Shown here piece after piece: positions 100 to 57,702 of a stretch of 64,000 bases of DNA (positions are counted from its first letter, which is position 1; each line of letters opens with the position of its first letter). The notes beneath the pieces are model-generated. The model worked only from the letters and a program-made list of their open reading frames with translations, was not told where the DNA came from and ran no database searches. Position numbers and translations under genes: made by a program. The stretch is from Thalassophryne amazonica (taxonomy: Eukaryota), in NCBI RefSeq assembly GCF_902500255.1, contig NC_047118.1:75533565-75597564 (forward strand), written 5' to 3'.

Positions 100-1170
100 G
101 TGTCCGACCTGCGTGATGTGCAAATCCTCCACCTGACCACCTACCAGCATGCTCCATCCTTTACCCATTCCTACACGACCTTGGTCACACATTTCAGTGG
201 ACTTCATAATTGTCCAAGGAACATACTGCAATTCTTACTATTGTTGACTGCCTGTCCAAGATGGCGCATTTTGTACCCTTACCTAAACTGCTAACTGCAA
301 AAGAAACTGAAGCCTTATTAAACCACATTTTCAAGTTACATGGTTTTCCACAGGACAGTGTTTCCGACTGAGGTCCGCAGTTTGTTTCTCGGTTTTGTAG
401 GGAGTTTTATCAACTGCTGGGGGTCTCCTCCAGCCTCACCTCCGGGTATCATCCACAGGCAAATGGACAATTCGAGAGGGTCAATCAGGAATTACAAAAG
501 GGCCTTCGTATCCTTGCTTCACAGCACCCACCCTCCTGGTCTTCCCCGTTAGTATGGATTGAGCTCACCACAACTGTTTGTCATCTGCATCCATTGGTTA
601 CTCTCCATTCCATGTGTCACATGGTTTTCAGCCTTCTCTGTTCTTTTCCACAGACCTGACTTCACGTGTGCCCTCGACTCTGTCCCTCATCCTCCACTGC
701 CGACAGACCTGGGCATGGGCCCGTCGGGCTTTGCTGCAATCATCGGCGGATTACAAGGACGCGGCCAACAAGAAGAGGTCACAAGAGCCTGTCTACTCTC
801 CTGGACAACGGGTGTGGCTCTCCACCCGCCATCTGCCCATCCCGTGGTCTACCAGGGAAGCTCACTCCCAGGTTCGTTGGTCCATTTCCTATCTCAAACA
901 TTATTCATCTGGTTTCTGTCCACCTTTGGTTGCCCAGGTCTATGAGGATACACCCCACCTTCCACGTCAGCCATGTGAAGCCTGCCCGCACCAGGGGGCC
1001 GGGCTTTTCGGTGCAGCGCCTCTTGGGGTTTCAGCGGTGTGGGAGGGGAGTGCAGTCCCTGGTGGACTGGGAGGGGTACGGGCCGGAGGAGTGCTCGTGG
1101 ATCCCCTCCTGTTTCATCTTGGACCCGGACCTGATTATGGACTTCCATGCTCGGCATCCTGATTCATGTC
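100..1170 (+). mobile_element. Ty3/gypsy-type LTR-retrotransposon pol 3' fragment (integrase core, C-terminal region and chromodomain), frameshifted and decayed
   Basis: Overlapping + ORFs carry integrase-like motifs (..HRQMDNSRGSIRNYKRAF..; ..[40 protein letters not shown]..) and a chromodomain-like ..[37 protein letters not shown]. The frames are broken, so this is a relic. Downstream 1170-1750 may be LTR sequence (unverified). Confidence 0.6.
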
Positions 1171-2553
1171 ATGAACTGTGTTTTGTCTTGTTATCTACCA
1201 TGTTTAGTTTAGGTCTTCATTTCATTTTGTTCTGATTTCGTGCTGTTTGGATTTTGTTTTTATTGTTTACTTAGTTTAGATTTTGGATTGTGTTGTCTAT
1301 GTGACTTCTCTGGCTGGGTGTTTCCTACTTGGGCTTTATCTGTCCCTGTTTCTCTTTTCTGTCTCTCTTGGAGCTTGGTGGGGGCGTGACACTGTATTTG
1401 GGCCACACCCTGTTCTGGATCTTTCCACACGTTTACAATCTATAGCTCATCACTAGGTGTATTTAAGCTCCACTGGTTGCACTGGTTATTCGCCTGACTG
1501 TTGCGCCTTGTGCCTTCGCTTGTAGCTCTGTATCATTGTGTTTTCAAGTCCTGATGTCACATTGTATTTTGACCACCTGCCTGTTTATACCGACCACACC
1601 AGTTGCCTGATGATTTTGATCTGTTTTCTTCTTTTGGACTGCCTCTCTCTGTACTGGACCCCACTGAGTAATTCAGTAAATGCCTCTTTGAACCACAGCT
1701 ACTGTGTCGAGTCCCACATTTGTCTCCAGCCTTCTATGTTAGACAAACCTGATACAAGCTGGACATGATGGCTCCCATGGGTAACTCAGACTTTGGTGGC
1801 ATCCTGAAAGTGCAGGCCCAGAACAGCCACATGTAAGAACAACAACTAATTTTAACTGTCTGAAACACTTAGACCTGGCCAGCAGTTGACTCTGGGGGAG
1901 TGTGTGCAGCTCCTCAGTTTTTGACAGCATCAACACCCCAGTAAGCATTAGATCATCTCTAGTGCCTCATGCCGAGCCTCACCTGCCACCCATCAAGCAA
2001 GACGATGGCAATCATGAGACATGTTGCTCATTCCTGTCCCTCTATGACCTGCAGCCTCCAGCCCTGTTCAAATCCCATGGATGCCTGATGGTCTGGGCCA
2101 CAGAGTGGGTGGTTGCTGAGTGTCAGCCATTGCACATGCATTCTCTCATTGCCTGAGAGAATGCATGTGCAGAGTTTCTGGGCTTACGGGTTCACAGGTC
2201 CCTCAATTTCAGCGTGTAATTGTTTAGTATCATTTATAACCACCGTTGGAGTATTGCCAACCCACCAGATTTTCTATCTTAATGTCTGCTCATTCTCATT
2301 ATTTCCTTGTCTTTGCCTTCGTGTTTTTGGCCCAAGCTGCCTCTGAGTGTCTGCCCATTTTTGCCTGCCATTCTTCACTTTTGCCATCTACTATGTATGT
2401 TGGCTGTACTCTTAACCTCTGCTTGTATTTTTGGATTACTCTTATGCTGCTCTGTCTCAGAACACTGTTGGCAATTGGAGTGATCTCCTATGTTTCTGAC
2501 TACTGCCCATCTAAGTGACCAAGAGAACTGTGTACTTGTACAGTACCATAGAC

Positions 2554-4740: not shown

Positions 4741-5390
4741 CAGTGGGTGACTGTAAATAATTTAGATGAATTTAAAATTCAAATGAAGAAGCAGACCTCG
4801 CGCTCTCACTTAGCATCCTCTGGCTGTTCTCCCTCCCTTGACGACTGTTGCCATGACAACTCTTGATCGTCCTAGAAATCTAGTGAAAGAAATGCTCCTT
4901 GTTTCTCTGTTCATACTTAAAAAAAAAAAGTCTATAAAATTAAATAAGATGTCAAAATACAGTTGGCTCCATATAGTTTAACATAGAAATCATTTTAATT
5001 TAAGTCAGAGGGAGGCGCTCTCTAGTACAGGTTCTAAGGTGTCACAAATGAGCCAGCTGTTCACATTTTTGAAGAAAGCATCAAACTTATCCCACTCAAT
5101 CTGTAGGTTATAGTTAACAGTTTAAGGGGTGGACACCAGTGAAATATGCATATTAAGTAGGCGTGGCATGTCATTTTCAAAATGGCCACCAGAAACTGTA
5201 TGTAAATACATACAGATAAACACAGTTTATTTGCAAATCACACAGCTTGAACTTGTAAAAATCAACATTTCTCAATAATTGCTATGATGTCCAAATAACA
5301 TAGGTCCCTGTAAAAGTAAAAACTGAACAAATTTTATATAATGTGGCCATTATACAAATCATATGTTTTGTAAAATGTGTTGATAGCATG

Positions 5391-6500
5391 GCCCAAGCAG
5401 AGGGTCACCCCTTTTGAGTCTGGTCTGCTTGAGGTTTCGTCCTCAAATCATCAGAGGAAGTTTTTCGTTACCACTGTTGCCTGTGTGCTGCTCTGGGGGT
5501 TAGTAAGGTTAGACCTTATGCCGCGTTCACACCGCACGCGACACGACGCCACAAATTCGCTTTCTTCGCCTAGTGATGGATGCGCCACTATCGCCCGGTG
5601 TGTCGCTCTGCTTGGGCAGAAACTTTTGCTGCGAAAAGTAGCTTGTGTCATCAAATAGGAGGAGCTTCCATTCCGCTCGCCGTCAAGTCAACATGGCGGA
5701 CCTTGATCACACGGAGTGAGTTGCTGTGCTCTATTTGTTGTGGAAAGCAGACATGTCGCCAGCAGTGCCGTCACTGGGTTCACAATATCCTCATGAGACG
5801 TTCCCAATTCGGGAAGTTTCATCATTTGCTGCAGGAGCTGCATCTGGATGATGGCCGCTTTCAGCAGTACTTCTGCCTCTCCAGGACCCAGTTTGAGGAC
5901 CTCCTGTCCCGTTCACGCGCGCACATGTAAACAAGGAAAAAAAAAAACTGGCTGCCCCTGCAGTTCCTCGCTCTCTCTCCCCTCAAACTCTCATCATTGT
6001 GTTATAAACCAGTCACCACTTGTTTTATCATACATCTGTGTAGTTAATAAAATGATCTTCACGGAGGATTCGTTCACGTGCGCACGTGTGGTGCTGCTCA
6101 CTCTCCCTTCCTGCTCACAGTCTGGCTGCCAGACACAGGACATGTCCACGTCAAGTATAAACTCCAGACATCTTCACGTCACTACACATCCAGTCCTTGA
6201 TTGGTCATTGCGGCGCAACAAGACAAAAAAGTTCAGATTTTTCAACTTGGGGAGGAGGGCGACACAACGCGATATCGCGCCACAAAGTCGCCAATCGCTC
6301 AAAATCACTTCATTCGCGTCCATTGCGTCACATTGCGTGGCTTGAACTTTTGTGGCATCACAACGCATCCTTCCATAGGGATTACATGGCAACCTGTCGC
6401 CGCCGTCGCCCGCGTCGCATATGGTGTGAACGTGGCTTTACTTGTGTGAAGTGCCTTGAGGCAACTTTGTTGTGATTTGGCGCTGTATAAATGAAAATAA
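5391..6500 (+). repeat. SINE-like tail repeat (gcccaagcagagggtcacccc...ttgtgatttggcgctgtataaatgaaaataaattgaa), split by a nested insertion
   Basis: The uninterrupted paralog at 14670-14860 reads ...ggttagacctta|cttgtgtgaagtgcc... Here the same junction is split by 5519-6437. Similar tails occur at 14560-14650 and 48140-48225. Confidence 0.7.
5519..6437 (+). mobile_element. PIF/Harbinger-like non-autonomous element (about 919 bp) with a 3-bp TTA target-site duplication, nested in the SINE-like tail
   Basis: Ends tgccgcgttcacacc...ggtgtgaacgtggc are inverted repeats. Flanked by TTA at 5516-5518 and 6438-6440; the paralogous empty site has a single TTA. Internal ORF 5580..5930 carries a motif reminiscent of the Harbinger-transposase N-terminal HTH (...FRLSRTQFEDLL...); the family assignment is unverified. 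The body is CpG-rich. Confidence 0.45.
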
Positions 6501-6599
6501 ATTGAAACTGAACTGAATATACAATGGCATCAATAACTACAATTTATGTTTTCTGGCTAGTTTGCATCCTAAGCACTCTGCATAAAAGAAGTAACAAAC

Positions 6600-7760
6600 A
6601 AGAGCAATCATAGATTTCTTACGTCTGCCAATTTGGATCTGGATGACCTCCAAAATTCAGTGTTGTCTTCCATGCCCTAACATTTATCTGTGGTGCCAAT
6701 TGGGTGAGAATCCGCGAAGCAGTTTTGACGTAATCCTTCACTCTAAAACATTGCAGCACATTTAGTTATGTCCACTTGCTGCCTCTCTTTAACATAGAGA
6801 GCTCTTACAGGTTTTGGATGTTGAACTCAACTTTACAAGTTGAGATGAGTTTTAAAATTGAGTTCAACATCCATCCAAAAATTGTAAGAACTCTTTATGT
6901 TAAAGAGAGGTAGCAAGTGGACATAACTAAACGTGCTGCAATGTTTTAGAGTGTTCAAAGTGACATCTTGATCCAGAGTCCAGATTTGGATCCGGATCAC
7001 CTGCAGAATTTAATGGTGTCTTCCATGGCCTAATATGTATCTGTGGTGAAACGTTGGTGAGAATCTGTGAAGTAGTTTTGATGTAATTCTTCAAAGCCTA
7101 TATAAATGGAATCTTAATCCAGAATCCAGATCTGGATTACCTCCAAAATTCAGTGGCATCTTCCATGGCCTAATATGTATCCGTGGTGAAAAGTTGGTGA
7201 CAATCTTTGAAGTAGTTTTGATGTAATCCTTTCAAGCCTATATAAATGGAATCTTGATCCAGAATATGGATCCGGATTACCTCCAAAATTCAGTGGAGTC
7301 TTCCAAACCCTAATATCTTTCCGTGGTGCAAACTTGGTGAGAATCCGTGAAGCAGTTTTGATGTAATCCTTCAAAGCCTATATAAATGGAATCTTGATCC
7401 AGAATCTGGATCCGGATTACCTCCAAAATTCAGTGGAGTCTTCCAAGCGCTAATATCTATCCATGGTGCAAATTTGGTGAGAATCCTTGAAGTAGAGTTA
7501 ATGTAATCCTTCAAAGTGTATATAAAGTGAAATCATGATCCAGAATCTGGATTCTGATCCAGATCTCCTCCAAAAATGTATGTGTTCTTCCATGGCCTAA
7601 TATCTATCTGTGTTGAAATTTTCATCAAAATCTGTGCAGTAGTTTTGACGTAATCCTGCTAACAGTAATCCTTCAAAAGCTATATGAAGTGAAATTTAAT
7701 CCAGATCTGGATCCAGATCACCTCCAAAATCTGTGCAGTAGTTTTGACGTAATTCTGCTA
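6600..7760. repeat. Satellite-like tandem array, unit about 139 bp (...aatggaatcttgatccagaatctggatccggattacctccaaaattcagtggagtcttcca...gtgagaatc...gttttgatgtaatccttcaaagcctatataa), about 8 units
   Basis: The 'acctccaaaattcagtg' landmark recurs at 6648, about 6998, 7141, 7279, 7418 and about 7567, a spacing of 138-149 bp. Confidence 0.75.
6708..6960. mobile_element. Foldback (palindromic) insertion of about 250 bp inside the satellite array
   Basis: Near-perfect inverted arms: ctaaaacattgcagcacatttagttatgtccacttgctgcctctctttaacatagagagctcttacag... / ...ctgtaagaactctttatgttaaagagaggtagcaagtggacataactaaacgtgctgcaatgttttag. It breaks the 139-bp periodicity. Confidence 0.6.
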
Positions 7761-8745: not shown

Positions 8746-10406
8746 TGATATGAGATAGAAACTTACTTTTTTTGCTGAAAAATTAACTCCGCGGACTTTC
8801 GAGCCAACCATCGGCCATCTTTGTATTCCTCATAGAAGCTGTGTGATCACGTGCGCAATGTGAGTGTCCAATCGGAATTGGTTCGCAGTCACATGGTTTT
8901 CCAAAATCCAATCGTAGGGCAGATTTACCTCACATGAAAAGCCAAAGATCATTTTCAGGAGTTATATGTTATTAGTTGGCCCGTTTGAATAGCCCCCTGG
9001 GTGCTCCAATGAGTACATACTATTAGTACATACTCAGTGCACCCTGCGCCATTACGCACAGCGATCAGTGAAAGCAGGAGCAGACGGAGAACCTCTGATG
9101 ACAATCTCACGTGCTCAAATAAAGAGTGTGTAACTATCAGGATTGCTCCACTAGTTTGCATGTGAATGTTACTGGATAACTCTGTTGCTTTCTCTGCGTA
9201 AAGCACTGTTTACCATATTAATGGACAACGCATAGACCATTTTGTGTATATTGGTCAAAATGTGCATTTGTGTTTATTGTTTGAACCTTTTTGTTGTTCA
9301 GTCTTTCACACAAGACCTCAAATTACCTTTATAAAGTGTCAAAACAGTTGTTTATTATAATTTGCTGTGTGTTTTGAATAAATGTGTGTGGAAAATTATT
9401 TTTCGGTTTATTTTTTCCTTGCCTATTTTTGATTGTAAACCTTTATTACACTTATAAAACACAACAAAAACATATATATTCTGAAAGCACAGGTTGTCCT
9501 GAAAAAAGAGACATAAAACTTGATTGTGGGATGCAGGGAGAGCTGTTAACAGCAATAATAAAACATTTATGCCAGGTGAGTGAACTGTCCAAAAAAATGC
9601 CCTCGGACCCCAGAGAGTTTTAAGAGACAGACTCATTTGTGGTGTTACCAGCAAGAAACTCCACAACAGCTTATTAAGTGTGGCGCAAAGCAAAGAGTTA
9701 ATACTCGCCGAAGCTTTTGATGTGAGCCTCGCGCATGAAATGGCGGAGCAGAACGCGAGACACTGGGAAAAAAAGTCCATAAAAGCAAACGCTGTGTCCA
9801 CGAAAGGTTTTTCCAAGTAGGAAAAAGGGAAGCCGTGTCACAGATGTGGGAGGACAGGCCATACGCCAAATGATTTCCACTTTAAAGATGCACAATGCCG
9901 CAGGTGCCTGAAAAAAGGGCACATCGCCAGGACATGCAGAGAATGACTAGAGGATTTCGAGTTTCATACCTGAATAGTCTGCCTATCACAGCGAAGCAGA
10001 TTGCATGTGAAACTGAAAAAGATCCAATACTGGCGAAAGTGAAACAGTATGTTTTGTCAAGATGGCCAAAACATGTGACTGATGAAAACATTCAGTCATA
10101 TTTGAGACGAAAATTTGATCCGACAGTGGAAGATTGCTATTTACTTTGAGGATTCAGAGTAATCATTCCAGAAAGTTTGCAAAACAGGTTACTTGCAGAG
10201 CTACATGATAGTCATTGGGGCATGGTAAAAATGAAGTGCTTGACTAGAAGCTTATGGTGGCCAACATTGGATGACGATGTTGAAACTGTAGTGTACCAGC
10301 TACAGCTCCAGTACACACGTGAAAATGGGCTTCAGGTCCATGAGAAAGAATTCACCTTGATTTTACAGAATCCAAAGGTCAATTGTTCTTGGTAGTGATA
10401 GATACA

Positions 10407-11874
10407 TACAGTAGTGTTCAAAATAATAGTAGTGCTATGTGACTAAAAAGATTAATCCAGGTTTTGAGTATACTTCATATTGTTACATGGGAAACAAGGT
10501 ACCAGTAGATTCTCACAAATCCAACAAGACCAAGCATTCATGATATGCACACTCTTAAGGCTATGAAATTAGGCTGTTAGTAAAAAAAAAAAGTAGAAAA
10601 GTGGGTGTTCACAATAATAGTAGCATCTGCTGTTGATGCTACAAACTCAAAACTATTATGTTCAAACTGCTTTTTTTAGCAATCCTGTGAATCACTAAAC
10701 TAGTATTTAATTGTATAACCACAGTTTTTCATGATTTCTTCACATCTGCGAGGCATTCATTTTGTTGGTTTAGAAACAAGATTTTGCTGGTTTACTAGTG
10801 TGCTTTGGGTCATTGTCTTGTTGAAACACCCATTTCAAGGGCATGTCCTCTTCAGCATAAGGCAACATGACCTCTTCAAGTATTTTGACATATCCAAACT
10901 GATCCATGATACCTGGTATGCAATATATAGGCCCAACATCATAGTATGAGTAATATGCCCATATCATGATGCTTGCACCACCATGCTTCACTGTCTTCAC
11001 TGTGAACTGTGGCTTGAATTCAGAGTTGGGGGGTCGTCTCACAAACTGTCTGCGGCCCTTGGACCCAAAAAGAACAATCTTACTCTTTTACTCTCATCAG
11101 TCCACAAAATATTCCTCCATTTCTCTTTAGGCCAGTTGATGTGTTCTTTGGCAAATTGTAACCTCTTCTGCACGTCTTTTATTTAACAGAGGGACTTTGC
11201 GGGGGATTCTTGCAAATAAATTAGCTTCACACAGGCGTCTTCTAACTGTCACAGCACTTACAGGTAACTCCAGACTGTCTTTGGTCATCCTGGAGCTGAT
11301 CAATGGGTGAGCCTTTGCCATTTTGGTTATTCTTCTATCCATTTTGATGGTTGTTTTCTGTTTTCTTCCACACCGTCTCTGGTTTTTTGTCCATTTTAAA
11401 GCACTGGAGATCATTGTAGATGAACAGCCTATAATTGTTTGCAACTGCGTATAAGTTTTCCCCTCTCCAATCAACTTTTTAATCAAACTATGCTGTTCTT
11501 CTGAACAATGTCTTGAACGTCCCATTGTCCTCAGGCTTTCAAAGAGAAAAGCATGTTCAACAGGTGCTGGCTTCATTCTTAAATAGGGGACACCTGATTC
11601 GCACCCGTTTGTTCCACAAAATTGACAAACTCACTGACTGAATGTCACACTACTATTATTGTGAACACCCTCTTTTCTACTTTTTTTTTTACTAATAGCC
11701 CAATTTCATAGCCTTAAGAGTGTGCATATCATGAATGCTTGGTCTTGTTGGATTTGTGAGAATCTACTGAATCTACTGGTACCTTGTTTCCCATGTAACA
11801 ATAAGAAATATACTCAAAACCTGGATTAATCTTTTTAGTCACATAGCACTACTATTATTCTGAACACTACTGTA
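10407..11874 (-). mobile_element. Tc1/mariner family 'A' element with about 230-bp terminal inverted repeats and TA duplication. The transposase is degraded (ORFs 11127..11576 and 10770..11042 on minus), and the element is inserted into the retrotransposon integrase
   Basis: Ends TACAGTAGTGTTCA…/…TGAACACTACTGTA. Minus-strand ORFs encode Tc1 transposase (…LIKKLIGEGKTY…[13 protein letters not shown]…; …KHGGASIMIWA…[12 protein letters not shown]…). Paralogs at 30895-32360 and 46324-46769. Confidence 0.85.
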
Positions 11875-13699: not shown

Positions 13700-14650
13700 G
13701 TCCTGATGGATCTCAACTTCTTCCTTTTAGAAAGGAGATGGGTGTGGTATTTGTGCTCGAGACCCTCCTGTCCTGTGCACCAACAGCATTTCCTGTATAT
13801 TTGTTTTGTGAATTGTTCCCTGAAAAGCCTTCAGTTAATTCAAAATGCTGCAGCTAGAGTACTGACGGGGACTAGAAGGAGAGAGCATATTTCACCCATA
13901 CTGGCCTCTTCTTTGGCTTCCTGTTAATTCTAGAATAGAATTTAAAAAATTTTCTTCTTACTTATAAGGTTTTGAATAATCAGGTCCCATCTTATCTTAG
14001 GGACCTCATAGTACCATATCACCCCAATATAGCGCTTCGCTGTCAGACCGCAGGCTTACTTGTAGTTCCAAGGGTTTTTAAGAGTAGAATGGGAGGCAGA
14101 GCCTTCAGCTTTCAGGCTCCTCTCCTGTGGGACCAGCTCCCAATTCGGATTAGGGAGACAGACACCCTCTCTACTTTTAAGATTGAGCTTAAAACTTTCC
14201 TTTTTGAAAAAGCTTATAGTTAGGGCTGGATCAGGTGACCCTGAACCATCGCTTAGTTATGCTGCTATAGACTTAGACTGCTGGGGGGTTCCCATGATGC
14301 ACTGAGTGTTTATTTCTCCTTTTGCTCTGTATGCACCACTCTGCATTTAATCATTAGTGATTGATCTCTGCTCTCTTCCACAGCATGTCTTTTCCTGATT
14401 CTCTCCCCTCAGCCCCAACCAGTCCCAGCAGAAGACTGCCCCTCCCTGAGCCTGGTTCTGCTGGAGGTTTCTTCCTGTTAAAAGGGAGTTTTTCCTTCCC
14501 ACTGTCGCCAAGTGCTTGCTCACAGGGGGTCGTTTTGACCGTTGGGGTTTTTCTGTAATTATTGTATGGCTTTTGCCTTACAATATAAAGCACCTTGGGG
14601 CAACTGTTTGTTGTGATTTGGCGCTATATAAATAAAATTTATTTGATTAG
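13700..14650 (+). repeat. Widespread teleost interspersed repeat with a conserved pseudo-peptide (…LQLIQNAAARVLTGTRRREHISPIL…LLWDQLPIRIRETDTLSTFKIELKTFLF…), ending in the 'ttgtgatttggcgctatataaataaaat' tail
   Basis: ORFs 13706..13927 and 13972..14223 show the conserved motif seen in many fish genomes. It sits between two Tc1-B fragments, so it probably inserted into that Tc1. Confidence 0.55.
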
Positions 14651-14669: not shown

Positions 14670-14860
14670 TGTTGCATGGCCCAAGCAGAGGGTCACCCCT
14701 TTGAGTCTGGTCTGCTTGAGGTTTCTTCCTCAGAGGGAGTTTTTCCTTACCACTGCTGCTCTAGGGGTTAGTAAGGTTAGACCTTACTTGTGTGAAGTGC
14801 CTTGAGGCAACTCTGTTGTGATTTGATGCTATATAAATGAAAATAAATTGAACTGAAAAA
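14670..14860 (+). repeat. Intact short copy of the SINE-like tail repeat; serves as the 'empty site' for the 5519-6437 insertion
   Basis: gcccaagcagagggtcacccctttgagtctggtctgcttgagg…ggttagaccttacttgtgtgaagtgccttgaggcaactctgttgtgatttgatgctatataaatgaaaataaattgaactgaa. Confidence 0.7.
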
Positions 14861-28132: not shown

Positions 28133-29483
28133 CTGAGACACACAAACAGACTGGGCGGTAACCGACCGCGTCATGTCATCTGAACCCATTCCCTGAACCA
28201 CGATTGTTTTACAGCAAGAGGATTTACTTTCAAAAGCAGGTCCACTTCTCATTTCTGATCGACAAAACATACCCCAGTCTCCCATCAGAGGACCCAAGGC
28301 TCTCGATGTGAAATTCTGCCTGAAGAGGGGGTGGGCCGATGCATGAGCATGACCAATATCATGTACATCGGAATGGCAATTTAAATAAAATACAAACAAA
28401 AAAATATCACGACTAACTCACCTGATTGTGTCCATTTTTTCCTCCTTCATTAAGTGTATTCCATGTAATTTGATTTCAGGTGGTTTCTTCTAAAAAGGGA
28501 CCCCTGACAGGCAAATACAGTACAATCCAGTATTTTTGCAGTCAGCCATTTACCCCGTTAAAGTATTTACATTCTGGGCAGACAGACCAGAGAGAACCAG
28601 GCTGACCTGAAGCAAAGCCAGACTGGACTAAATAACCTCATGGAACAAACTAGAAAAGAACCAAAAACAGTGCATCCCTCAGTAAATTCTGATTATCAGT
28701 TTCCTCTGGTCTCCACAAAAACAAGGTGTCACCTGCAAAATCAGCATTTCCACATGATCTGCAAACAATATCTTTATTATTGATTCATCAGGCAGTTATT
28801 GTAATAACTCAGAATACTTTTGTCAAAATGGTTTTTTGTTTTGTTTTTGCCCAGTCACAACACAAATTAAATTAAGCATTTTAAAGATTGGGAATACAAG
28901 CACATTTCAAAAAAATCTTTTACGTTTTGAGGCAGATTCACAAAAAGGGATGGAGCCACTAAAAAGAGTGGAGCAATATTCTGACATTCTAACATGGAGT
29001 TACACACTGATTCATACTCATTTTTTAATTACTTTGTGGTAAATGCTGCAAGTAGTCATTTTCATACTCCTTTATGACTTCTGAAACAGACACAAATAAA
29101 CATTAAAAGACCCACAGATATCTTCATTTAAACAGTAGTTCAAATGCAAAGAGATTTAAATTACAAGTTATAAACAACAACAAAAAAAAAACGATATAGC
29201 AATAAACATTAAATGACTATAGTATTATCAGTGATGGTTTAAAAAAAGAGTGGAAACAACACCTAAAATTCAGCCATGTTAAAGGTGTAAATTTATACAG
29301 ACTGAATAACAGGGTTTTTTCCCCTGTATTTTTCCTCAAACATATTTTCAGTGAAGATATTCGTTGATCATTTTCAACACAGAGACAGCATTTTTGGTCA
29401 CGTGACCCGTCATGGCAGTGTTCTTCAGTGCCACAACAGAACGGAACCCCCCAAAGGTCAGAACACAATGAACTGCTACTAAC

Positions 29484-29679
29484 CTGCTGCATCTCCTCTC
29501 CTGGGTACAGGGGGAAGGGGTCCTGGGTCAAGCGAATCTCTAGGTCGGCGTGGCGAAGCTTAGCCTGACCGCACTGATCAAACAGGACCTGATCGTCGTC
29601 ATCACGGGCAACAGGGTTGATGATCACGCAGTAGTGTCGTGGAGGTACCATGATCATACGCACAGGCGCAAAGAGGACT
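29484..29679 (-). CDS. MVP: MVP coding exon 2 ([65 protein letters not shown])
   Basis: Acceptor ccaacag|a…, donor …cagcag|gttagt. Aligns to the MVP repeat domain (VLFAPMRMVTVPPRHYC…[22 protein letters not shown]). Confidence 0.9.
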
Positions 29680-30129
29680 CTGTTGGGGACAAGGAGGTGG
29701 ACACAGACCACCAAAAGATCAACATTTAATACTTAAGGAAACAGCGTATATTTATGAATTTAATCAATGTGCCAGTCAAAGGGACTCAAAATTGATAAAC
29801 TGTTGCCAAGTAGGCAAAAAATAAAAATATAATTCTGGTGTTCTTTAGAGGCTCTCGTGCAAAGCAAAAGTTACTACAACAACAACAGCCGCTTCGTGGT
29901 CACACGGAAAAAGGAAGATGAAATCATTAGGATAGTTTTTTTTTTCCCTCCTTCAGATGTGGGTATTGTTCACATGCTGCTGTAGATTTAACAAAACCAT
30001 TTTATTTTCACATTATGAACCAAATGTTTCTCACACTGAGGTTAATGAAATTGTGTTTCAACCTTTTTGGGTACTGCTACAAGTTCAGTAACCAAAGTGT
30101 CATAAGTCAGGTCAAGTTTGACAGCATGT

Positions 30130-30880: not shown

Positions 30881-30894
30881 AAATTGCATGTAAA

Positions 30895-32360
30895 TACAGT
30901 AGTGTTCAGAATAATAGTGCTATGTGACTAAAAAGATTAATCCAGGTTTTGAGTATATTTCTTATTGTTACATGAAAACAAGGTACCAGTAGATTCAGTA
31001 GATTCTCACAAATCCAACAAGACCAAGCATTCATGATATGCACACTCTTAAGGCTATGAAATTGGGCTATTAGTTTAAAAAAAAAAAAAAAAAAAAAAGT
31101 ACAAAAGGGGGTGTTCACAATAATAGTGTGGCATTCAGTCAGTGAGTTTGTCAATTTTGTGGAACAAACAGTTGTGAATCAGGTGTCCCCTATTTAAGGA
31201 TGAAGCCAGCACCTGTTGAACATGCTTTTCTCTTTGAAAGCCTGAGGAAAATGGGACGTTCAAGACATTGTTCAGAAGAACAGCGTAGTTTGATTAAAAA
31301 GTTGATTGGAGAGGGGAAAACTTATATGCAGGTGCAAAAAATTATAGGCTGTTCATCTACAATGATCTCCAGTGCTTTAAAATGGAAAAAAAAAAAAAAA
31401 AAAAAACAGACACATGGAAGAAAACAGAAAACAACCATCAAAATGGATACAAGAATCACCAGAATGGCAAAGGCTCACCCATTGATCAGCTCCAGGATGA
31501 TCAAAGACAGTCTGGAGTTACCTGTAAGTGCTGTAACAGTTAGAAGATGCCTGTGTGAAGCTAATTTATTTGCAAGAATCCCCCGCAAAGTCCCTCTGTT
31601 AAATAAAAGACGTGCAGAAGAGGTTACAATTTGCCAAAGAACACATCAATTGGCCTAAAGAGAAATGGAGGAATATTTTGTGGACTGATGAGAGTAAAAT
31701 TGTTCTTTTTGGGTCCAAGGGCCACAGACAGTTTGTGAGACGACCCCCCAAACTCTGAATTCAAGCCACAGTTCACAGTGAAGCATGGTGTTGCAAGCAT
31801 CATGATATGGGCATGTTTCTCCTACTATGGTGTTGGGCCTATATATCGCATACCATCATGGAACAGTTTGGATATGTCAAAATACTTGAAGAGGTCATGT
31901 TGCCTTATGCTTAAGAGGACATGCCCTTGAAATGGGTGTTTCAACAAGACAATGACCCCAAGCACACTAGTAACCAAGCAAAATCTTGGTTCCAAACCAA
32001 CAAAATGAATGCCTCGCAGATGTGCAGAAATCATGAAAAACTGTGGTTATACAACTAAATACTAGTTTAGTGATTCACAGGATTGCTAAAAAAAAGCAGT
32101 TTGAACTTAATAGTTTTGAGTTTGTAGCATCAACAGCAGATGCTACTATTATTGTGAACACCCCCTTTTCTACTTCTTTTTTTTTACTAATAGCCCAATT
32201 TCATAGCCTTATGAGTGTGCATATCATGAATGCTTGGTCTTGTTGGATTTGTGAGAATCTACTGGTACCTTGTTTCCTATGTAACAATAAGAAATATACT
32301 CAAAACCTGAATTAATCTTTTTAGTCACACAGCACTACTATTATTCTGAACACTACTGTA
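30895..32360 (+). mobile_element. Tc1/mariner family 'A' element, the most intact copy (ORF 31200..31658 transposase N-terminus; pseudogenised downstream)
   Basis: TIRs TACAGTAGTGTTCAGAATAATAG… / …CTGAACACTACTGTA. MKPAPVEHAFLFESLRKMGRSRHCSEEQRSLIKKLIGEGKTY…, then a poly-A run, frameshift and stops. Confidence 0.85.
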
Positions 32361-43400: not shown

Positions 43401-46323
43401 GAAAAATGCTGGGGGGGGGGGTCTCAGGAAGCTGAAAGGTTTTAGCCATGCTAATGCTCCCCTGAAGCATTTGCGCAAAAAAGTGAAGACCTAATGGACG
43501 CTGAAGAGCGTCGCTTGTTCATGTCTGCGGCATATACATATTACTAACTTTTATTTACTAAAATTAAATCTGCAAGATTCCATTTTGAATTGAGAGTTTT
43601 GGATTTTAGTACTTTCATGGCCTCATAAAATGTGACATTTTGCAGTTCAGTTTCTGTAAAACTAAAGTAAAATCACTGTGTCACATTTAGTCAAACTAAA
43701 TTCAAAGTATTTGTGACTAAATGTAAGGTTTCAGGTAAACAGGTTCCAGATCAGATTTTAAAAACAAAACCAAAGCAAAGTAAACAGAAGAGTTTTTGGC
43801 TGTGGACTGCAGAAGGAAACATTCTGCCATATACGTTGTGAACGTGTGGGTGTGACAGAAAAATTTGATTATGAGTTTGAGGTCAAAGAGCAGCAGAGTG
43901 ACTGGACTGGTTCAGCTCCACCAGCCCAACCCACAAAGACTCAATGTGCACCATAGTTTTTTATTTATTCAATGCAGCTTGGTTGGAGACAATAAGTCTC
44001 CAAGTAGAAACATACGTCTCCAAACAACGTTGGTAATTTGTATAACAAATCCTAAAACATTAAGGATCACTTTATTTGACTGTACTATATACACACATAA
44101 GGGAATCTTGTTTACGGGTTTTGCTTAATCCGGCGTTTTAGTCCCATCAAGCGAGCTTCTTTGATTTATTACGATGATTAAATTAAGAGAAAATAAAACT
44201 AAACCAACCCCGTGACGTCACAAGCCTGACGGCAACCGGCGGTTAAAAGTTTTTTCCACCGTTAATTCAACTAGTTTACGACATAACTTTCAGATTGTTA
44301 ATAAAATCTCTTCATTTTCCTTTCTTCTTCTGTTTTTTTGTGTGTGACGTGAATATTGTCCGAGGTTGCTGGAGGTTTTCATTTGAAGGTTTTCACTGCG
44401 GATTTGGTGACGGAAGCGTCGCCGTTTTTCTTACCGTGTCTCAATCGCTCGGTTTCAGGCAGCTTCCGAGTCCGTACTTGAAGACTCTTCTGATTTTCTA
44501 TGGGTTTTTTTTTTTTTTTTTTTGCAAACCCGGACGATAATTAGATGGGCGTGGCTCCTTCTGACTTGCTGGGAAAATGACTCAGCAGTCACGTGTTTTA
44601 CCGACTTTTACTGCGTCACTGCAGCTGTGAGATCAGCGATATAAACAGCAGCAGATAAGTGAAATATATATAAAGGTTGAACAAGACAAGGTTAATGAGT
44701 GTTTTAAGAAACAAACAACTACTTATACTGCTATATATCATGTACATAAATATTTCATGAAATTTGTTAGAGCAGGAATAATGTGGAAATGGCGACACCT
44801 GCTGGCTGTTCCTCAGTACACAGAGGCCTCCCTGCTCAGCTCTTGTTGGAGCGACAACACACAGAATGTCTCTTTCAGTGCAGCTTCTTGTTCTGACTTT
44901 AACACGAAGTTAACACCCAAGTCTTTCATCGCCAACTGTAAATGGTCATCAAACATTCCAACTGTATCTTTCTGAACTCTTCCGCATCAAACTCTATCGT
45001 ATTGAGCAATAACAGGGGAAGTTGCTTATACATTTTAAGTTTCTTAAATATTTATTACAGCCACTCTTAAAACTTCAGTTATCTTTATAATTTTATTACT
45101 AGTAAGTTTTAGAATTGATTTAGATGAGATATACTCATTATTTCACAGGAATATATGATATCACAATTATCTGGGAACTACTTTGCGCAGGAATTCATCA
45201 AGCACGTCGGCTGCGGGCGCGTACTAACACAGAATACCCAGAAACTGTGGAAAGTTGTTCGGCCAAAACGAGAGCGTCCACTTTTAGCTTGTCATAAGCT
45301 AAGTTTGTGGCGCTCGTGAGAGTGCGCGCAGAGGGAGGAGCCTTCCAGTTTTTCATTCTTCCCCCTCTAAACACACCAGAAAAAGAAAATAAGATTAGTA
45401 TCACTTTTTGTCTGCTGTGGCAGCGTTATATTCCTGTTCGCTTCCACCAAATCCCCTTGCTTTTGCTTTAGTAGTTCCAAATCACATGAGAGAAACCAGA
45501 GCGCTGCTCTGTTCTCATGCGGAAGTGAGGCCTCGTGTGTTTCACAGATCTGGTGCTACAGGAAGTGCTGAGACAAGATGAGGCTGCTACAAAATGCACC
45601 TGCTCTTGCTGGGATTTCTGTGTGAGTGCAATGACTTTGGTGACAGTGTTAGATATATTTGTGTGTTTGATTATTGTTTTCCTTATTTATTTGTTTTGGT
45701 ATTAAAGTAGTTGAATTTATTAGGCACCAACACTTAAAAAAATCACTCATTTACAGACCACGAAATCAATACAAAAAAAGCTACAGGAAAGAAAGAACAA
45801 GAAAACAATGTACATGGTGCCCAAAAGGTGTAGGGAGAAGCAACGCTTATCAACGCCTACACCCAACTATACAGTCAAATCAACCCAAGCTACGTGCCAG
45901 TTCATGCACATTCATTTCCAACAAAGTCTGAACAGTAGCAGCTTATAACTACAGCTGAGGGAAGTCAATATTTCCAAAAGAGCTCCTATTTTGTACAAGT
46001 TACCTCAGTACATATTCAATAGTAAGAATTCAAATGAAGCAGATCCATCATACAACACAAACTCAACGTATTTCATCAGATACATATCCGGAGAACACCA
46101 TTTCTTTGTAAAAATCTTTAAACTGGTTGATATTTGGACATCGTTTGAGTTTCTCAGGGAGCTTATTCCATTTTTTGGGCCACAAATAGAGATACAGAAG
46201 CATTTCCTGGTCGTCCTAGTGCCAACAATTTTAAAATGACACAGACCCCTTAAATTATATATTCCTTCTCCTTGATTAAAATATTCTTGAAATCTAAATG
46301 GTAATTGCTTATTTTTCACTTTA

Positions 46324-46769
46324 TACAGTAGTGTTCAGAATAACAGTAGTGCTATGTGACTAAAAAGATTAATCCAGGTTTTGAGTATATTTCTTATTGT
46401 TACATGGGAAACAAGGTACCAGTAGATTCAGTAGATTCTCACAAATCCAACAAGACCAAGCATTCATGATATGCACACTCTTAAGGCTATGAAATTGGGC
46501 TATTAGTAAAAAAAAAAAAAAAAAACGTAGAAAAGGGGGTGTTCACAATAATAGTAGTGTGGCATTCAGTCAGTGAGTTCATCAATTTTGTGGAACAAAC
46601 AGGTGTGAATCAGGTGTCCCCTATTTAAGGATGAAGCCAGGCACCTGTTGAACATGCTTTTCTCTTTGAAACCCTGAGGAAAATGGGACGTTCAAGACAT
46701 TGTTCAGAAGAACAGCGTAGTTTGATTAAAAAGTTGATTGTAGAGGGGAAAACTTATACGCAGGTGCAA
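46324..46769 (+). mobile_element. Tc1 family 'A' copy, 3'-truncated (left TIR plus first about 60 transposase codons)
   Basis: tacagtagtgttcagaataacagtagtgctatgtgactaaaaag… to …gaggggaaaacttatacgcaggtgcaa, then unrelated sequence. Confidence 0.8.
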
Positions 46770-47289
46770 TCAATGAGCAATACAGAGTATGTAGAATGTG
46801 CTTTGCCCTATTTAATACTGCAATAACAGTCTGTAATGTTTTCACAGCATAATAGGACAAAGCTGCACAGGTCACAAGCAGTCAAGTCACATTTGTAGTT
46901 TATTTTTGAACCTCTCAGTCTTACTGGTGAAGTGTAGCTTTATTTCACTTTAATGACAATGTTCAGATGCTCTTGGCAAAATACGAGGTAGCATGGCCGG
47001 TTCCTTTCTTCACCACCCAACATACTTTATAAACCACATGTAAACTTGTTGTAGCCACAGGGTCATGTTAAGAAACAGTTCACATGTGATCATTAAGGTC
47101 AGCGAATAAAGATCACAGCACTCCTACTGAGTGGACATGACCTGCTAATATTGCTACATTCCATCAGGCTTCCAGAAATTTGGCTTCCTGTTCATAATAT
47201 ACAGGTACATCTTAAAAATAAGAACATTGTGGAAAAAGTTCAACATTTTTTTTCTCATATATTTGAGAAAGTGAGCATTTTATTATATT

Positions 47290-47775: not shown

Positions 47776-49334
47776 AATGAAATAAACTTTTATATATTCA
47801 AGACTCCTTACATGTAAACTAAAATGTTTGAAGCATTATTATTATTTTGATTATGGCCTACACCTTCAAAAGAAAAAAAAAAAAACCAACAGAAAATGTC
47901 TATTGATATATTTAATTTCAAGTCACTTATGATGCAGAATAAATATCACAAATCTCTCAATCTGGTTCAGTACACACAACCACAATCATGGGGAAGTCTG
48001 CTGACTTGACAGTTGTCCAGAAGACACTCACTGAGTCTCCACCGATTATTGCTGAAAGGGCTGAATGTTCACACAGTGCTGGATCAAAGCATATTCGGGT
48101 GATTCTTTAACTATGGGCACTATTGGCCTTGTAAATGTAATTTCCACCACACCATTGCCTTACAATATAAAGCGCCTTGGGGCAACTGTTTGTTGTGATT
48201 TGGCGCTATATACATGTGCTCTGATGTCACTGTTTATCTCCATACACACTACCCAAACAATCTTTCATACAAACTGTTTAGGGACATTACAGTGTTGTGG
48301 TGGAAATTACGGCAATAGTGTGGGACAACTACATTTTGTTTAAAAAAAATCACAACAGTTGTATGACATTGAATACCCCAATTATGTTTTGATTATTTTA
48401 CTGATATTTTATTCAGAGATATTTTAGAACATTAGAAAAAACGTTTCTTTACCATTCATTTTTATCATTGAAGATCAAAAGTCTGGGTGTGGGACAAGCA
48501 CAAAACGGCAATATTTGCATGTAATGATGCTGAAAAAAGGTGAAAAAGTCATCATAGACTACTAGAACAAATTTCTTAACACACTTTCATTGTAAAGATA
48601 ACTATAAAAGTGTGAAATTTCCCATTTTTTCAGTTTTTCATACAATATGATCAAAGGACATAAGTGCCCGTAGTCTAAGAATCACCCATTCATGGAAATT
48701 TGACCAGAAGGGAAAAGTGTTGTAGGAAGAGAGGACCCCAGGCTTGAGAAGATTTTCAAGCAAAGCCCATTTAAGAACTTGGGGGAGCTTCACAGGGAGT
48801 GGACTGAGGCTGGAGTCAGTGCATCAAGACCCACCACACACAACATGGAAATGTCCAGTGTGTAGTTTCCACAGTTGAGTACCGTGTCACCCGCTGGTGT
48901 CGGCCCACTATGTTTTATCAAGTCCAAAGTCAACACAGCCATCTTACCAGATTTTAAATTGTAGGGTATTGTCAAGAGGAAGATGACACCAGCCAGCCCC
49001 AACAATACAGACGAGCTGAAGGCCACTATCAAAGCAACCTGAGGTTAATATCACCTCAGTTGTTGATCTCATGAAATATTTAAATATTTTGAGATTCATT
49101 TTTCTATTTATTTATTTGAGCTGTAGGCTGTAAATTTCAAAATAAAATAAATGCTTCAAACATTTTTAATGTAATTTGAGAATATATAAACTTCTCACTT
49201 TCTGAAATAACTGAAAAAATATTTTTTCACAATACTCAATTTTTTTTAGATGCACGTGCGTATAAATTATTTATAAGTATAATATTTATTTATTTATTTA
49301 TTATATAATATCCTTTAAAAGCCATGTTATTCAT

Positions 49335-53558: not shown

Positions 53559-54504
53559 CTAGGCACAGAAACAACAACGTTATTCGACATTCTTATTAGT
53601 GACATCTGACTAGTGTCGCTACCAGGGCATCTCTAGTTCAACTCCCATCACACTCAGCCACATTTCCACAAAAAACTGGGTGAACACAATCTGAACCTAA
53701 GCAACTTATTAAAAAGGCAGTAGAAACTGTTAAGGGTGTGGTGTGTTCTCTATGGACGTACGTGGAGGACGTGGTCCAACTTTGGACATGTAACAAAAAA
53801 AAAAGCAGCAACGATGTGGTCAAAACAGGATGCACTAAGCATTAAATAATGATGTGCGGGGCAGACAGCTTCTCCCAGCAGCAGTGGGGAGAAGTGCTGT
53901 GCTGCTTTTTTAATGGAATGTGCTGGTGAATGTGCTGTCCGTAGCGCTAAACGCAGCCTAAAATAGAAATCAATAAATATATGTGGAAAAAATAATCTCC
54001 TGCACCTCCTCATACAAACTGAGCTTTGCTTCAAAGCATGCACACGGAGCATATTTGAATGTGTATTTATAACAGAGATGGCATTTTGGCAGGAAAGCTA
54101 TTTTCTTACATGTGGATATAAGAAAACTTACAGAATGAATTTAAAAAAAGTGCAGCGCCTGTCACAGGGCAGAAACAGTTTGCAGTAAGAACACTGTAAG
54201 AATAAATTCTATATAATTAGTGAGAATGTGTTAGAAGCTCTGAGAACATGGCAGGGACTTAATCACAACAAAGTATGGACTCAAACATGCATCACAAAAT
54301 CAACATTTTCAGGATGCAGTGTGTTGTTCATGGTGTTCACCTGAGTTAGATTTGGTTTTAGCACCATCGCTTCATAGCAGGACACCTGTTAGTATCGACC
54401 TGGCCTGGGTGGCCTATCTTTGTGAAATTGACATGTTTCCATGTCGTTTTCTCCAAGCAACAATTTATATCAATAACAATGACATGAACAATATGTGAAT
54501 TTAC

Positions 54505-56166
54505 CTTGTGCTGCCAGCAGGCTGTGACGGACAGGTTTTGGAGCAATAGCAGGCTTTGGGGATAGAGGAGGTCTAATGGGGGATCCTGTAGATGGACTTG
54601 ATGGCCTCCCCTCTTTGAACCTGAGAGTGATGTCCTCCTGGTTCTGGGAAAGTGGTCTGATGTTGCCAGTCTCAAACCCAGTAGCTGCCTCTCTGGTAGA
54701 CGAGGATCCAGCTTCTTTTTCCTTGGGTTTGTGCCTGCGTTTCACTGTGTCTGACTCCTTCAGGTTAAACTCTGGCACCTGCAGGTTTTTGGCTGCCAGT
54801 TTCTCTGGGGGTTCCAGCACGGTCTCAGCCCTCGGTGGTCCTGCAACCTTGGGCCTCTGTTTGATTGTCAGGTTGCCCTCCTCGGCAAAGGGGATGCACT
54901 CGCTGGAGCTGTTGTGAGGGGAGGAAGAGCATTCTATCCCTGGTCCCTTTGCTTCTTCTTCCTCAGAATCAGATCTCACCCCTTGGTCTTGATCAGGGTT
55001 GATGGTTTGGATGACAATAAACTCGCTCTGTGCCCTCCTCTTCACCCCTGTGGCATCATGGGGTTCTTGAACTTTGAGAGAGATGAAAGGTGATTGTTGC
55101 TGGATGGGGTCTAACTTAGGGCCTAAATGGTTCTTCACCTCTGAGCTTCCCTCCAGAGAGGCAGCAATGCTCCTCACATTACCCGGACTGTCAGTCACAA
55201 CACTACCACTGGAAGATGTTGTGCTGCAGTCACTCAACTCACCACTGGTCGTGCTACTTACTGAGCTCAGTCTCTTGGGTGGCGGAGGTGGGGGACCTTT
55301 TTTCCGGGCACGAACGGCAAAGGACTGACTCCGTCCCACATTGGTATTCTTTTCTGGGCTTGACTGTAATCGCGCAAGTTGGCTCCGGCCAGGTTTTCGA
55401 GTCAAAGTGGCATATGATGACAGGCTTCCAGAAGGAAGAGCAGGCTCCTCATCGTCATCATCAAGCTCACCATCTGAGAGGGCATAGCGGGTCCGGGTCT
55501 GTGAGCGCTTCGCGAGGGGTGCCAGAGCATGACTGTGATCTTCAGGTGGGACATTTGAGGTCTGCTCCAGGTCTGTGGATCCACAATGAGAATGCAGGTA
55601 GCTGAAGCCTTTCAGTGCTGGAGAGCCGTGCGGAGAGGAGCCTTGAGATCTAGGGAGTTTGGGCTTTGCTGGGATAGCCGGGTATTTAAAGACGGTGGCT
55701 GTACCCAGAGGTACCTGCTTGGGCAGCGGTTGGTGATGTAATGGCTTCTGATCCCAGCATTCTGGGATATTCCTCTCCATATTGTCTTGGGACCAGGCAC
55801 TGGGAATGATTGCAGCTGTGGGAGGATCCTGAGAGCGCCCTGACCCTCTTAATCGGGTACTGATGCTCTCCTGATAATGGGATATTCCCACTGCATTCTT
55901 GATGGCCAAGCCATCTTCGCAGCCTCCGTAGTGGCTTGATATGGCAGACTGCAACTCTGGACTAAGCTCACTGTCCTGAAAGGTCAACATCTTTGGGGTG
56001 CGAGGTGACGGGCTTTCACTGCCAGCATCAGGTGGCTCGATAGTTACGAGGTGGAGGTCTCCAGGGCCTTTTCTTTGCAATGTGCCTTGGGTAGATTCTG
56101 CCTGAATGATTGCCCTCTGGATGTCGCATAATTTCTTCACAGCCAACATGAGCTTCTTCTGGTGGC
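54505..56166 (-). CDS. Caskin-like gene, large exon (1662 nt): end of a SAM domain (…GHQKKLMLAVKKLCDIQRAIIQAE…) followed by about 520 codons of Pro/Ser-rich low-complexity linker (…RKKGPPPPPPKRLSSVSSTTSGELSDCSTTSSSGS…)
   Basis: Acceptor is (ct)n…ctag|gcc, with the (GA)n microsatellite 56163-56262 supplying the polypyrimidine tract on the coding strand. Donor gcacaag|gtaaattc. ORF 54470..56347 is open throughout, but its N-terminal 'LSLSLS…' is intronic microsatellite, not protein. The SAM 'LGHQKKLML' motif and a long proline-rich exon fit Caskin SAM2 plus linker; confidence is moderate. Confidence 0.6.
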
Positions 56167-56168
56167 CT

Positions 56169-56200
<32 letters not shown>

Positions 56201-56222
56201 CGAGAGAGAGAGAGAGCGAGAG

Positions 56223-56257
<35 letters not shown>

Positions 56258-56262
56258 TAAAA
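56163..56262. repeat. (GA)n microsatellite with occasional GCGA units
   Basis: agagagagagagcgagagag… On the minus strand it reads (CT)n immediately 5' of the exon acceptor. Confidence 0.9.
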
Positions 56263-57702
56263 TTAAGGGTGTAAAATAAATATTGATGGTGTTGTGATGC
56301 ATTCCCTTTTTGATTGTAAAGGCTTCAGTTAACAAGAGCGACACCAATTGTGGCTCATGCCCCTGCAGTATGTTAAGACTGGTGTGTGGTTTGATAGTAT
56401 CAGTGATAATGAGGTCTGGAAATGATTTCTAAAGCAAAAGACTGGTGCTTTAAAGATGGTATATGGTCTGTTTGAAAAGCGAAAGGTTGCCGCTTTATAA
56501 CTGGTATGTGGTATACTGACCCTCATTTTCCAAAGGAACCTTACCATAGCTTCCCCCAATTAGGATTAAAGCAAAAATAAAATAAATTAAATCTTCTGAC
56601 TTTTTTTTTTTAAAGGCCAAATCATAAGCTGTTCACCATCTGTTTTTTTTTTTATAGAAACCCTTTTGCGATCGTGTCCTAGGATTTAAGGTAAAACAAG
56701 GCAGAGACAGTTAAGAACACAATGAGAATCAACAGAAATCTTTTAAAATACAAAAGATTAAATACGAGCTGTGTTTCTTTTTCCTGGTCAAAAAAAGGAT
56801 GAGCAGAAATTGAAAAAAAAAATGGTTTGTTTTCTCTTCATATTTAGAATAGGCTAATAAAAACTCAAATCACTGGCAAACAGAACAAATAAAAATGACC
56901 TGTTTTCTCTTATTGCAGACATCTAAGAAGGGTGAGGTCAAAAAATAGGAAACCGTCGGACTGCGAGCGGCAACTGTGTGGAGGGTGTGGGAGGGGGTTT
57001 CGGGGGCCTCCCCTGGCATTTTTTTTTTTAATAAGGTCCCAAATGGTGCACTTTGACCACAATTTTAAGGATGAGTAAGAACCACAGTCCATATTTGCTC
57101 ACAAAAAAATGTTTGTATTTTACATATTTAAACAGAATGAGGGGTCGTGATAGCAGGAAAAAAAAAAATGTACACATTTCCATTCCAACAGCTTTCCATT
57201 CATGACACAGAAGTCAAACCACAGCGAGGACACAATTACGCAAAGTTTGAATCTTCACAGCAATGAATGTAAACTGATTGAACAATATTCAATTTTATTA
57301 TATGGCTACGGCGGTACGTGCGCTTTGACTGGCTGATTTCTGGTCTGATATCTTCCCATATCAGTCTGTTACCATGACAATTAGTCTGGATCACGTATCA
57401 GATTTGCGATTTTGTTTACAATTTTCACAACAAAATAAAATAAAACAAAAAGTGGACAAAGATAATGGAGGAATTAACAGCAAACAAGCTCAAAGTGGAC
57501 GTGCAAAATGAGATGTGAAAACACAGATCCAAAACAGTCAAGAACAGATTGAAAACTGCTTTACAAACCAGAAAGCTAGAAACACAATTAGAAAAACCAA
57601 GTCAGACATGAACATACTCCATAAATATCTAAATGGCAAAAAACACACACACACACACAGATTGAAAGCCTACCAGTTAACGGCCGGGCCATCTGTTGAC
57701 AA

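Follow-up and report, generated by a model that had tools for sequence, protein, structure and literature searches.

What is the 919-bp segment that interrupts one copy of a dispersed repeat in the Thalassophryne amazonica genome, and how did it come to lie there? The locus stands near the start of a 64,000-nucleotide stretch of contig NC_047118.1 (positions 75,533,565 to 75,597,564; hereafter the window), and an earlier reading made from the letters alone (the sequence-only reading) had taken the segment for a Harbinger-like miniature inverted-repeat transposable element (MITE) lying in the same window as its empty site. Based on the uninterrupted copy of the repeat, on protein homology and on related elements in other fishes, we conclude with high confidence that a teleost PIF/Harbinger DNA transposon lies at positions 5519-6437 as a non-autonomous copy with an internal deletion.

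Insertion Site and Host Repeat

The host of the insertion is a dispersed repeat of ~210 bp with two copies in the window. The filled copy (5385-6515) reads ...GGTTAGACC-TTA-(919 bp)-TTA-CTTGTGTGAAG..., and the uninterrupted paralog, ~8 kb away at 14674-14857 on the plus strand, reads ...GGTTAGACC-TTA-CTTGTGTGAAG..., with its single TTA at 14784-14786. Read directly, the filled site runs ...ggttagacc TTA, then TGCCGCGTTCACACC ... GGTGTGAACGTGGCT, then TTA cttgtgtgaag..., which places the left arm of the host repeat at 5385-5518 (plus strand), the left copy of the target-site duplication at 5516-5518, the inserted element at 5519-6437 (plus strand), the right copy of the duplication at 6438-6440, and the right arm at 6441-6515 (plus strand). 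The left arm aligns at 90% to 14672-14788, and the right arm matches 14784-14852 with 94% identity across 69 nt; in the alignment of the flanks to the paralog the values are 90% (left) and 87% (right), and the host repeat rebuilt without its insert matches 14674-14857 at 86% over 205 bp by blastn. With both junctions fixed by the paralog, the 3-bp duplication can be read directly, with no latitude in where the boundaries are set. The proposal that a 919-bp element with inverted repeats lies exactly at a TTA, with TTA on both sides, is therefore borne out to the base; of the proposed empty site, the single TTA stands, but the site is a paralogous copy of the repeat and not an orthologous, pre-insertion allele.

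Filled and empty paralogs by themselves give no polarity, and the 919 bp could instead be original to a longer repeat and have been lost from 14674-14857 by a deletion between the TTA triplets. We give this explanation almost no credence: inverted repeats of the segment's own mark its exact boundaries, its relatives in other fishes lie in unrelated flanking DNA with 3-bp duplications of their own (see below), and a related repeat family in the window, with copies at 14573-14633 and 48155-48215, has one TTA at the homologous place in each (14578-14580 and 48160-48162), which marks the single TTA as the ancestral state.

The host repeat is "SINE-like" (resembling a short interspersed nuclear element) by label, and its status as a SINE is putative; Rfam and ARAGORN, applied to the host repeat and the window, found no RNA family and no tRNA or tRNA-like head. 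A second, related SINE-like tail family (...GGCAACTGTTTGTTGTGATTTGGCGCTATATAAAT...) is seen at 14400-14646, directly upstream of the uninterrupted paralog, and at 48155-48215. Directly downstream of the interrupted repeat stands a tandem array (6979-7552; period 140 bp, 4.1 copies, 87% matches), with weaker copies over 6595-7662.

Terminal Inverted Repeats

The 5' terminal inverted repeat (TIR; GCCGCGTTCACACCGCACGCGACACG) occupies 5520-5545 on the plus strand and pairs over 26 nt, at 81% complementarity, with the 3' repeat at 6411-6436 on the minus strand (reverse complement GCCACGTTCACACCATATGCGACGCG); the two repeats differ by five mismatches and sit exactly at the insertion boundaries. Their 14-nt core, GCCRCGTTCACACC, occurs twice in 64 kb, both times at an end of the element, against 0.09 occurrences expected from shuffles, and the related fish elements also terminate in it. 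A blastn search with the insert found no second copy in the window, complete or partial, and blastn and tblastn found no autonomous copy within the 64 kb.

A Decayed Transposase Exon

Inside the element, the plus strand between 5693 and 5912 carries the decayed remnant of a transposase exon 1, recognized by protein homology; its DNA alignment to fish relatives ends at ~5913. The remnant reads MADLDHTE from an ATG at 5693, meets a TGA at 5717-5719, resumes as VAVLYLLWKA, passes a frameshift, and then reads CRQQCRHWVHNILMRRSQFGKFHHLLQELHLDDGRFQQYFCLSRTQFEDLLSR until it stops at ~5912, its damage thus amounting to one stop codon and one frameshift. The open reading frame (ORF) at 5580-5930, which the sequence-only reading had proposed to translate, does overlie homology to a Harbinger transposase but is itself a chance open frame, and the homologous reading is the one from 5693. 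A further candidate feature, GGA/GTGAGT at 5714 as the splice donor of a mini-intron, was dropped, since alignment to relatives gives an in-frame stop and a frameshift.

A phmmer search with the fragment returned ~100-aa exon-1 proteins of teleosts (Goodeidae) at E values from 8e-18 to 3e-13, one of them labeled "Nuclease HARBI1" by UniRef. These proteins start MADMDFTDLITVFYLWRAEKRRRR..PWVHQILQGREQFGDYHHLLQELRLDDGRFQRYFCLSRTQFEDLLSRVGRRIGLRDTNYRRCIPAAERLSICLR and correspond to transposase exon 1, which closes in the fish loci at a GTGAGT or TTAGT donor. A profile search yielded 207 matches across teleosts, among them entries named "DDE Tnp4 domain-containing" and "ALP1-like"; some are longer and continue to ...FRVGVSTV...FPLCCGALDGKHV..., the region of the first catalytic Asp. 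On a larger scale, HMMER against 1.84 billion representatives, with the exact window translation as starting query and a profile that came to hold residues outside the window fragment, gave 13,596 matches. Ten near-full-length matches were scanned: PF13359 (DDE_Tnp_4) was present in all ten, PF04827 (Plant_tran) in seven, and PF13613 (HTH_Tnp_4) in several, at ~residues 87-130. Because the profile reached past the window fragment, the fragment alone was compared separately with full-length proteins by BLASTP, and it proved collinear with residues ~15-72 of three proteins of ~395 aa (7e-12, 2e-8, and 3e-8). Conversely, tblastn of full-length relatives had 5712-6008 as its only match in the window.

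The peptide motif singled out by the sequence-only reading is encoded in the window as FCLSRTQFEDLL, with TGC for Cys, so that it reads FCLSR and not FRLSR; relatives carry either residue, and a change from CGC to TGC is a CpG transition. The motif falls at ~residues 60-72 of the full-length relatives, upstream of HTH_Tnp_4 (~87-130). Judged from these alignments, the fragment is the extreme N-terminus of a PIF/Harbinger transposase, as had been suspected, but it lies upstream of the Pfam helix-turn-helix (HTH) region and is not the HTH itself. The window copy is without the catalytic domain. Gene calls of this same exon 1 appear to account for many ~100-aa "hypothetical proteins" of teleosts (Goodeidae, Crenichthys, Cirrhinus, and others), a reading of the ~100-aa proteins (P0001-P0120) that was checked in the DNA at only a few loci.

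Related Elements in Other Fishes

Genomic loci were fetched for seven fish proteins, and they contain related elements with the same ...GTTCACACC ends. The element of Ilyodon furcidens is 958 bp long (TAA-TGGTGCATTCACACC...GGTGTGAACACACCA-TAA) and is laid out like the window copy, with TIR, 5' untranslated region (UTR), exon 1, deletion, 3' subterminal region, and TIR; its breakpoint differs, the whole of exon 1 being kept and continuing into intron 1. That of Haplochromis burtoni spans 3592 bp (TAA-CGGTGTGTTCACACC...GGTGTGAACACACCG-TAA), and the Cirrhinus molitorella element (L091) is flanked by TCA/TCA. An Ameca locus (L001) has TAA as its 5' flank, and one of two Crenichthys loci (L093) has TTA; for neither was a 3' end found. 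The window is teleost nuclear DNA: its protein relatives all come from teleosts, and some of its repeats recur at the Ilyodon and Haplochromis loci.

Both genes are seen in a 4.5-kb element of Xyrauchen texanus (L090), whose terminus, TGCTGCGTTCACACC, is the closest to the window's TGCCGCGTTCACACC and whose exon 1 is 81% identical to the window DNA; one of its flanks is TAA and the other falls in an assembly gap. Within the same TIRs, its plus strand encodes DDE_Tnp_4 (frameshifted) and its minus strand holds ORFs with MADF_DNA_bdg (1.1e-6) and BESS (3.3e-9) domains. Going by these ORFs, L090 has the canonical two-gene Harbinger layout as described in PMC9179366.

The window element and its fish relatives are collinear from the 5' TIR through exon 1 and again over the last ~250 bp; both the 5' and the 3' parts of the element are collinear with Harbinger copies of four other fishes. 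The DNA from TIR to exon 1 is collinear in five fishes, which indicates that the exon is native to the element. This collinearity bears on the idea that an element of another superfamily with 3-bp duplications (CACTA/EnSpm, Zator, or Academ) had captured a piece of a Harbinger transposase. A 3-bp duplication is not exclusive to Harbinger, hence not diagnostic when taken alone, and Pfam is silent on the ORFs of the window, both of which would suit such a capture. Against it stand not only the five-fish collinearity but also the termini, which are common to elements that carry DDE_Tnp_4 and MADF/BESS genes (L090), are not CACTA-like, and go with a TWA target preference. We regard capture as highly improbable and retain the PIF/Harbinger assignment for the element as a whole.

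The Same Terminus in Metagenome Contigs

JGI metagenome contigs scanned for GCCRCGTTCACACCNNAYGCG gave 86 loci (L004-L089). About half of them are high-GC, presumably bacterial chance matches, and were used as a negative control; the remaining contigs, among them Ga0209780, Ga0209145, and Ga0126327, come from several environmental or host-associated metagenomes, are low-GC, have almost no long ORFs, and have no other DNA in common with the fish window. This pattern scan recovered the terminus only and no copy of the 919-bp element, and no transposase is encoded on the terminus-bearing contigs. In the low-GC set, an A precedes 24 of 32 distinct matches; TAA or TTA stands just before that A in 18 of the 32 and TGA or TCA in a further 6, whereas TAA or TTA is found in only 2 of 41 high-GC controls. 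Short elements numbering ~20 and spanning 145-1429 bp were delineated by pairing opposite termini; in eight of them, the same T-N-A triplet (TTA, TAA, TGA, or TCA) flanks either end. Examples with T-N-A duplications are L013 (1253-1469), L028 (1696-1965), L033 (1274-1438), and L056 (777-1317), and the elements of L031 and L041 are flanked by TGA/TGA and TCA/TCA. The terminus thus goes with a 3-bp T-N-A target, mostly TWA.

These triplets decide what the window alone leaves ambiguous. The true duplication there might be a 2-bp TA, of Tc1/mariner or ISL2EU type, with the extra T on each side coincidental: gaccT-TA-(tgcc...ggctt)-TA-cttg formally fits the empty site, and one extra matching base arises by chance 1 time in 4. 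Yet the dinucleotide TA is missing from TCA/TCA in Cirrhinus (L091) and from TGA/TGA and TCA/TCA in L031 and L041, which makes 3 bp the length of the duplicated unit; furthermore, shifting the boundary yields no better inverted repeat, and the remnant and its full-length relative point to DDE_Tnp_4 plus MADF instead of a DD34E/Tc1 transposase. A 2-bp duplication is therefore very hard to credit, and we keep the 3-bp TTA.

The fish element and the short metagenome elements share a 21-nt terminus, (A)GCCGCGTTCACACCGnAYGCG. This sharing might conceivably reflect a Harbinger lineage whose terminus recognition is conserved across very distant animals, or horizontal transfer between fish and a probably invertebrate host; we find either account rather doubtful at present.

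Internal Segment, 3' Block, and CpG Content

An internal segment without matches (plus strand, 5913 to ~6200, or to 6189 where the conserved block is set off) separates the deletion breakpoint from the conserved 3' region. A 19-nt junction motif, CGTTCACGCGCGCAC / CGTTCACGCGCGCACATGT, occurs at 5910-5928 and again at 6071-6089 and resembles the TIR core. The segment may have arisen as filler in abortive gap repair or, alternatively, may be lineage-specific intron DNA.

It is followed by a conserved 3' subterminal block at 6190-6247 on the plus strand (CCTTGATTGGT...AAAGTTCAGATTTTTCAACTTG), with an inverted CCAAT motif inside. The block (CCTGATTGGT...AAAGTTCAGATTTTTCAACTCG) is nearly invariant among the window, Xyrauchen, Ilyodon, Cirrhinus, and Haplochromis elements. 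Since the Myb-like gene of the Xyrauchen element is read inward from the 3' end, the CCAAT-bearing block may be the promoter of this opposite-strand gene. The ratio of observed to expected CpG is ~1.3 in the subterminal segments (5519-5700 and 6190-6437), whereas the flanking DNA has 0.5 and the exon remnant 0.48.

Classification of the Element

Harbinger elements are defined by TIRs of 25-50 bp, a 3-bp target-site duplication, and two ORFs, one encoding the transposase and the other a Myb-like protein (PMC9179366). The window element has 26-nt TIRs and a TTA/TTA duplication, alongside TAA/TAA, TAA/TAA, and TCA/TCA in its relatives; DDE_Tnp_4 (IS5-like) ancestry is evident from the remnant at 5693-5912 and from the collinear DDE-bearing elements. 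The Myb/SANT-like second ORF is present in the Xyrauchen relative and absent from the window copy, as is expected for a non-autonomous element. The family assignment, which the sequence-only reading had offered as unverified, is upheld by the homology of the coding remnant, by the two-gene relative, and by the duplications of other copies, whose tabulation had been suggested as a check and gave 3-bp T-N-A triplets in the fish relatives with one exception in Crenichthys.

MITEs are typically below about 600-800 bp and lack a coding remnant. At 919 bp, with an exon-1 remnant and one copy in view, the window element is better described as a non-autonomous internal-deletion derivative, and the label MITE does not hold. 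It nonetheless resembles the Tourist-like MITEs of plants, such as mPing, in being a deletion derivative with a TWA duplication, a class mobilized by transposase and an ORF1/Myb-like protein in trans (PMC2836001). Typical MITEs are 430 bp or less, whereas the window element is longer and keeps its coding remnant.

ISL2EU elements make 2-bp duplications, in contrast to the 3 bp of the window and of the complete relatives. As distant Harbinger-like relatives, they share an IS5-related DDE transposase and occurrence in teleosts (PMC9179366) but differ in that the relatives of the window element have a Harbinger-type Myb-like partner. The 3-bp unit and the DDE_Tnp_4 remnant likewise separate the element from Tc1/mariner, with its TA duplication and DD34E/D transposase. 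Domesticated genes of the HARBI1/ALP1 type belong to the same protein family, and some relatives of the fragment are labeled HARBI1 or ALP1-like; unlike those host genes, the window sequence has TIRs and a target-site duplication at its borders and is truncated and frameshifted, as befits a transposon relic. With teleost PIF/Harbinger elements it has in common the TWA duplication, TIRs of ~26 nt, the N-terminal remnant of DDE_Tnp_4, and relatives with an opposite-strand MADF/BESS gene, and it departs from full elements in that both its catalytic domain and its Myb-like gene have been lost; the termini of its subfamily read TGCC/AGCC...GTTCACACC. For two-gene elements of the Harbinger3_DR type, PMC9179366 cites Kapitonov and Jurka (2004) and Sinzelle et al. 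(2008).

Several observations weigh against this classification. The TIRs match at only 81%, and there is no complementarity between the outermost bases, T5519 and T6437; the metagenome consensus begins with A or T, which makes the 3' end of the window element (reverse complement AGCCACG...) canonical. The window holds a single copy, and the comparison copies all come from other fishes, none from the same species. Pfam found no match on the window ORFs or the fragment, because the ~70 residues kept fall outside DDE_Tnp_4 and HTH_Tnp_4. The middle ~288 bp (5913-6200) match neither a fetched relative nor other DNA of the window. The second Crenichthys locus (L092) has TAT, not T-N-A, as its single recovered flank, and several metagenome pairs have unequal flanks, e.g., TTA/TAA; the pairs without identical triplets differ by one base or are probably mispaired.

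Proposed History and Present State

We propose that the autonomous ancestor was an element of ~4-5 kb in which a DDE_Tnp_4 gene and an opposite-strand Myb-like (MADF/BESS) gene lay between ...GTTCACACC... TIRs. From a breakpoint within exon 1 (~5912), an internal deletion would have removed nearly everything beyond the first ~70 transposase codons, leaving the two termini in place together with the 5' UTR, a portion of exon 1, and ~250 bp of subterminal DNA on the 3' side. The truncated element would then have been moved in trans by the proteins of an autonomous copy elsewhere: the Myb-like protein would bind subterminal sites and recruit the transposase, which would cut at the inverted repeats. 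Insertion into the TTA of the dispersed repeat by a staggered 3-nt cut, followed by repair, would have doubled the TTA, and later decay would have left an immobile relic. For the superfamily, it is established that elements are mobilized in trans, that the cut is staggered, and that the Myb-like protein plays this role (PMC9179366; for mPing, PMC2836001); by analogy, the same probably holds for this element.

The same anatomy could also belong to a member of a MITE family that remains active and numerous in this genome. The high CpG ratio of the subterminal segments (1.3 against 0.5 in the flanks) shows no depletion there, which argues against great age, and together with the intact target-site duplication it is compatible with an insertion that is not very old; in addition, Harbinger transcription in teleosts is reported (PMC9179366). 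On the other hand, the TIRs carry 5 mismatches in 26 nt and end in non-complementary bases, the exon remnant has a stop, a frameshift, and a CpG ratio of 0.48, no second or autonomous copy is present in 64 kb, and the arms of the host repeat have diverged by 10-14% from the paralog. We consider an active family unlikely. The stop codon and frameshift, the TIR mismatches, the non-complementary end bases, and the lack of an autonomous copy nearby suggest that the window element is presently an inactive relic.

Other Features of the Window

Elsewhere, the window contains a remnant of a Ty3/gypsy chromovirus-type C-terminal integrase (666-1232, plus strand), its ORF carrying a chromodomain and an SH3 domain of the Tf2-1-like kind. 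Two host gene exons lie on the minus strand, encoding a major vault protein repeat domain (29217-29711; 1.4e-25) and a Caskin proline-rich region (54470-56344; 1.2e-38). Three copies of a dispersed repeat, up to ~1.4 kb long, are seen at 10406-11874, 30891-32360, and 46323-46774, their segments being 64% to 98% identical and mostly 83-98%, and a 66-bp unit is doubled in tandem at 61301-61432 with 98% identity.

Significance

The kind of element found here is already fully known, Harbinger elements and their derivatives being well documented in teleosts (Etchegaray et al. 2022, PMC9179366), and the value of the locus lies mainly in annotation. Masking should treat the region as a non-autonomous DNA/PIF-Harbinger element nested in a SINE-like repeat, and the ORF at 5580-5930 should not be annotated as a gene. 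The filled and empty paralogs form a neat teaching example, in which a paralogous empty site fixes the length of the target-site duplication. The sole lead with some novelty is the occurrence of the terminus in eukaryotic metagenome contigs.

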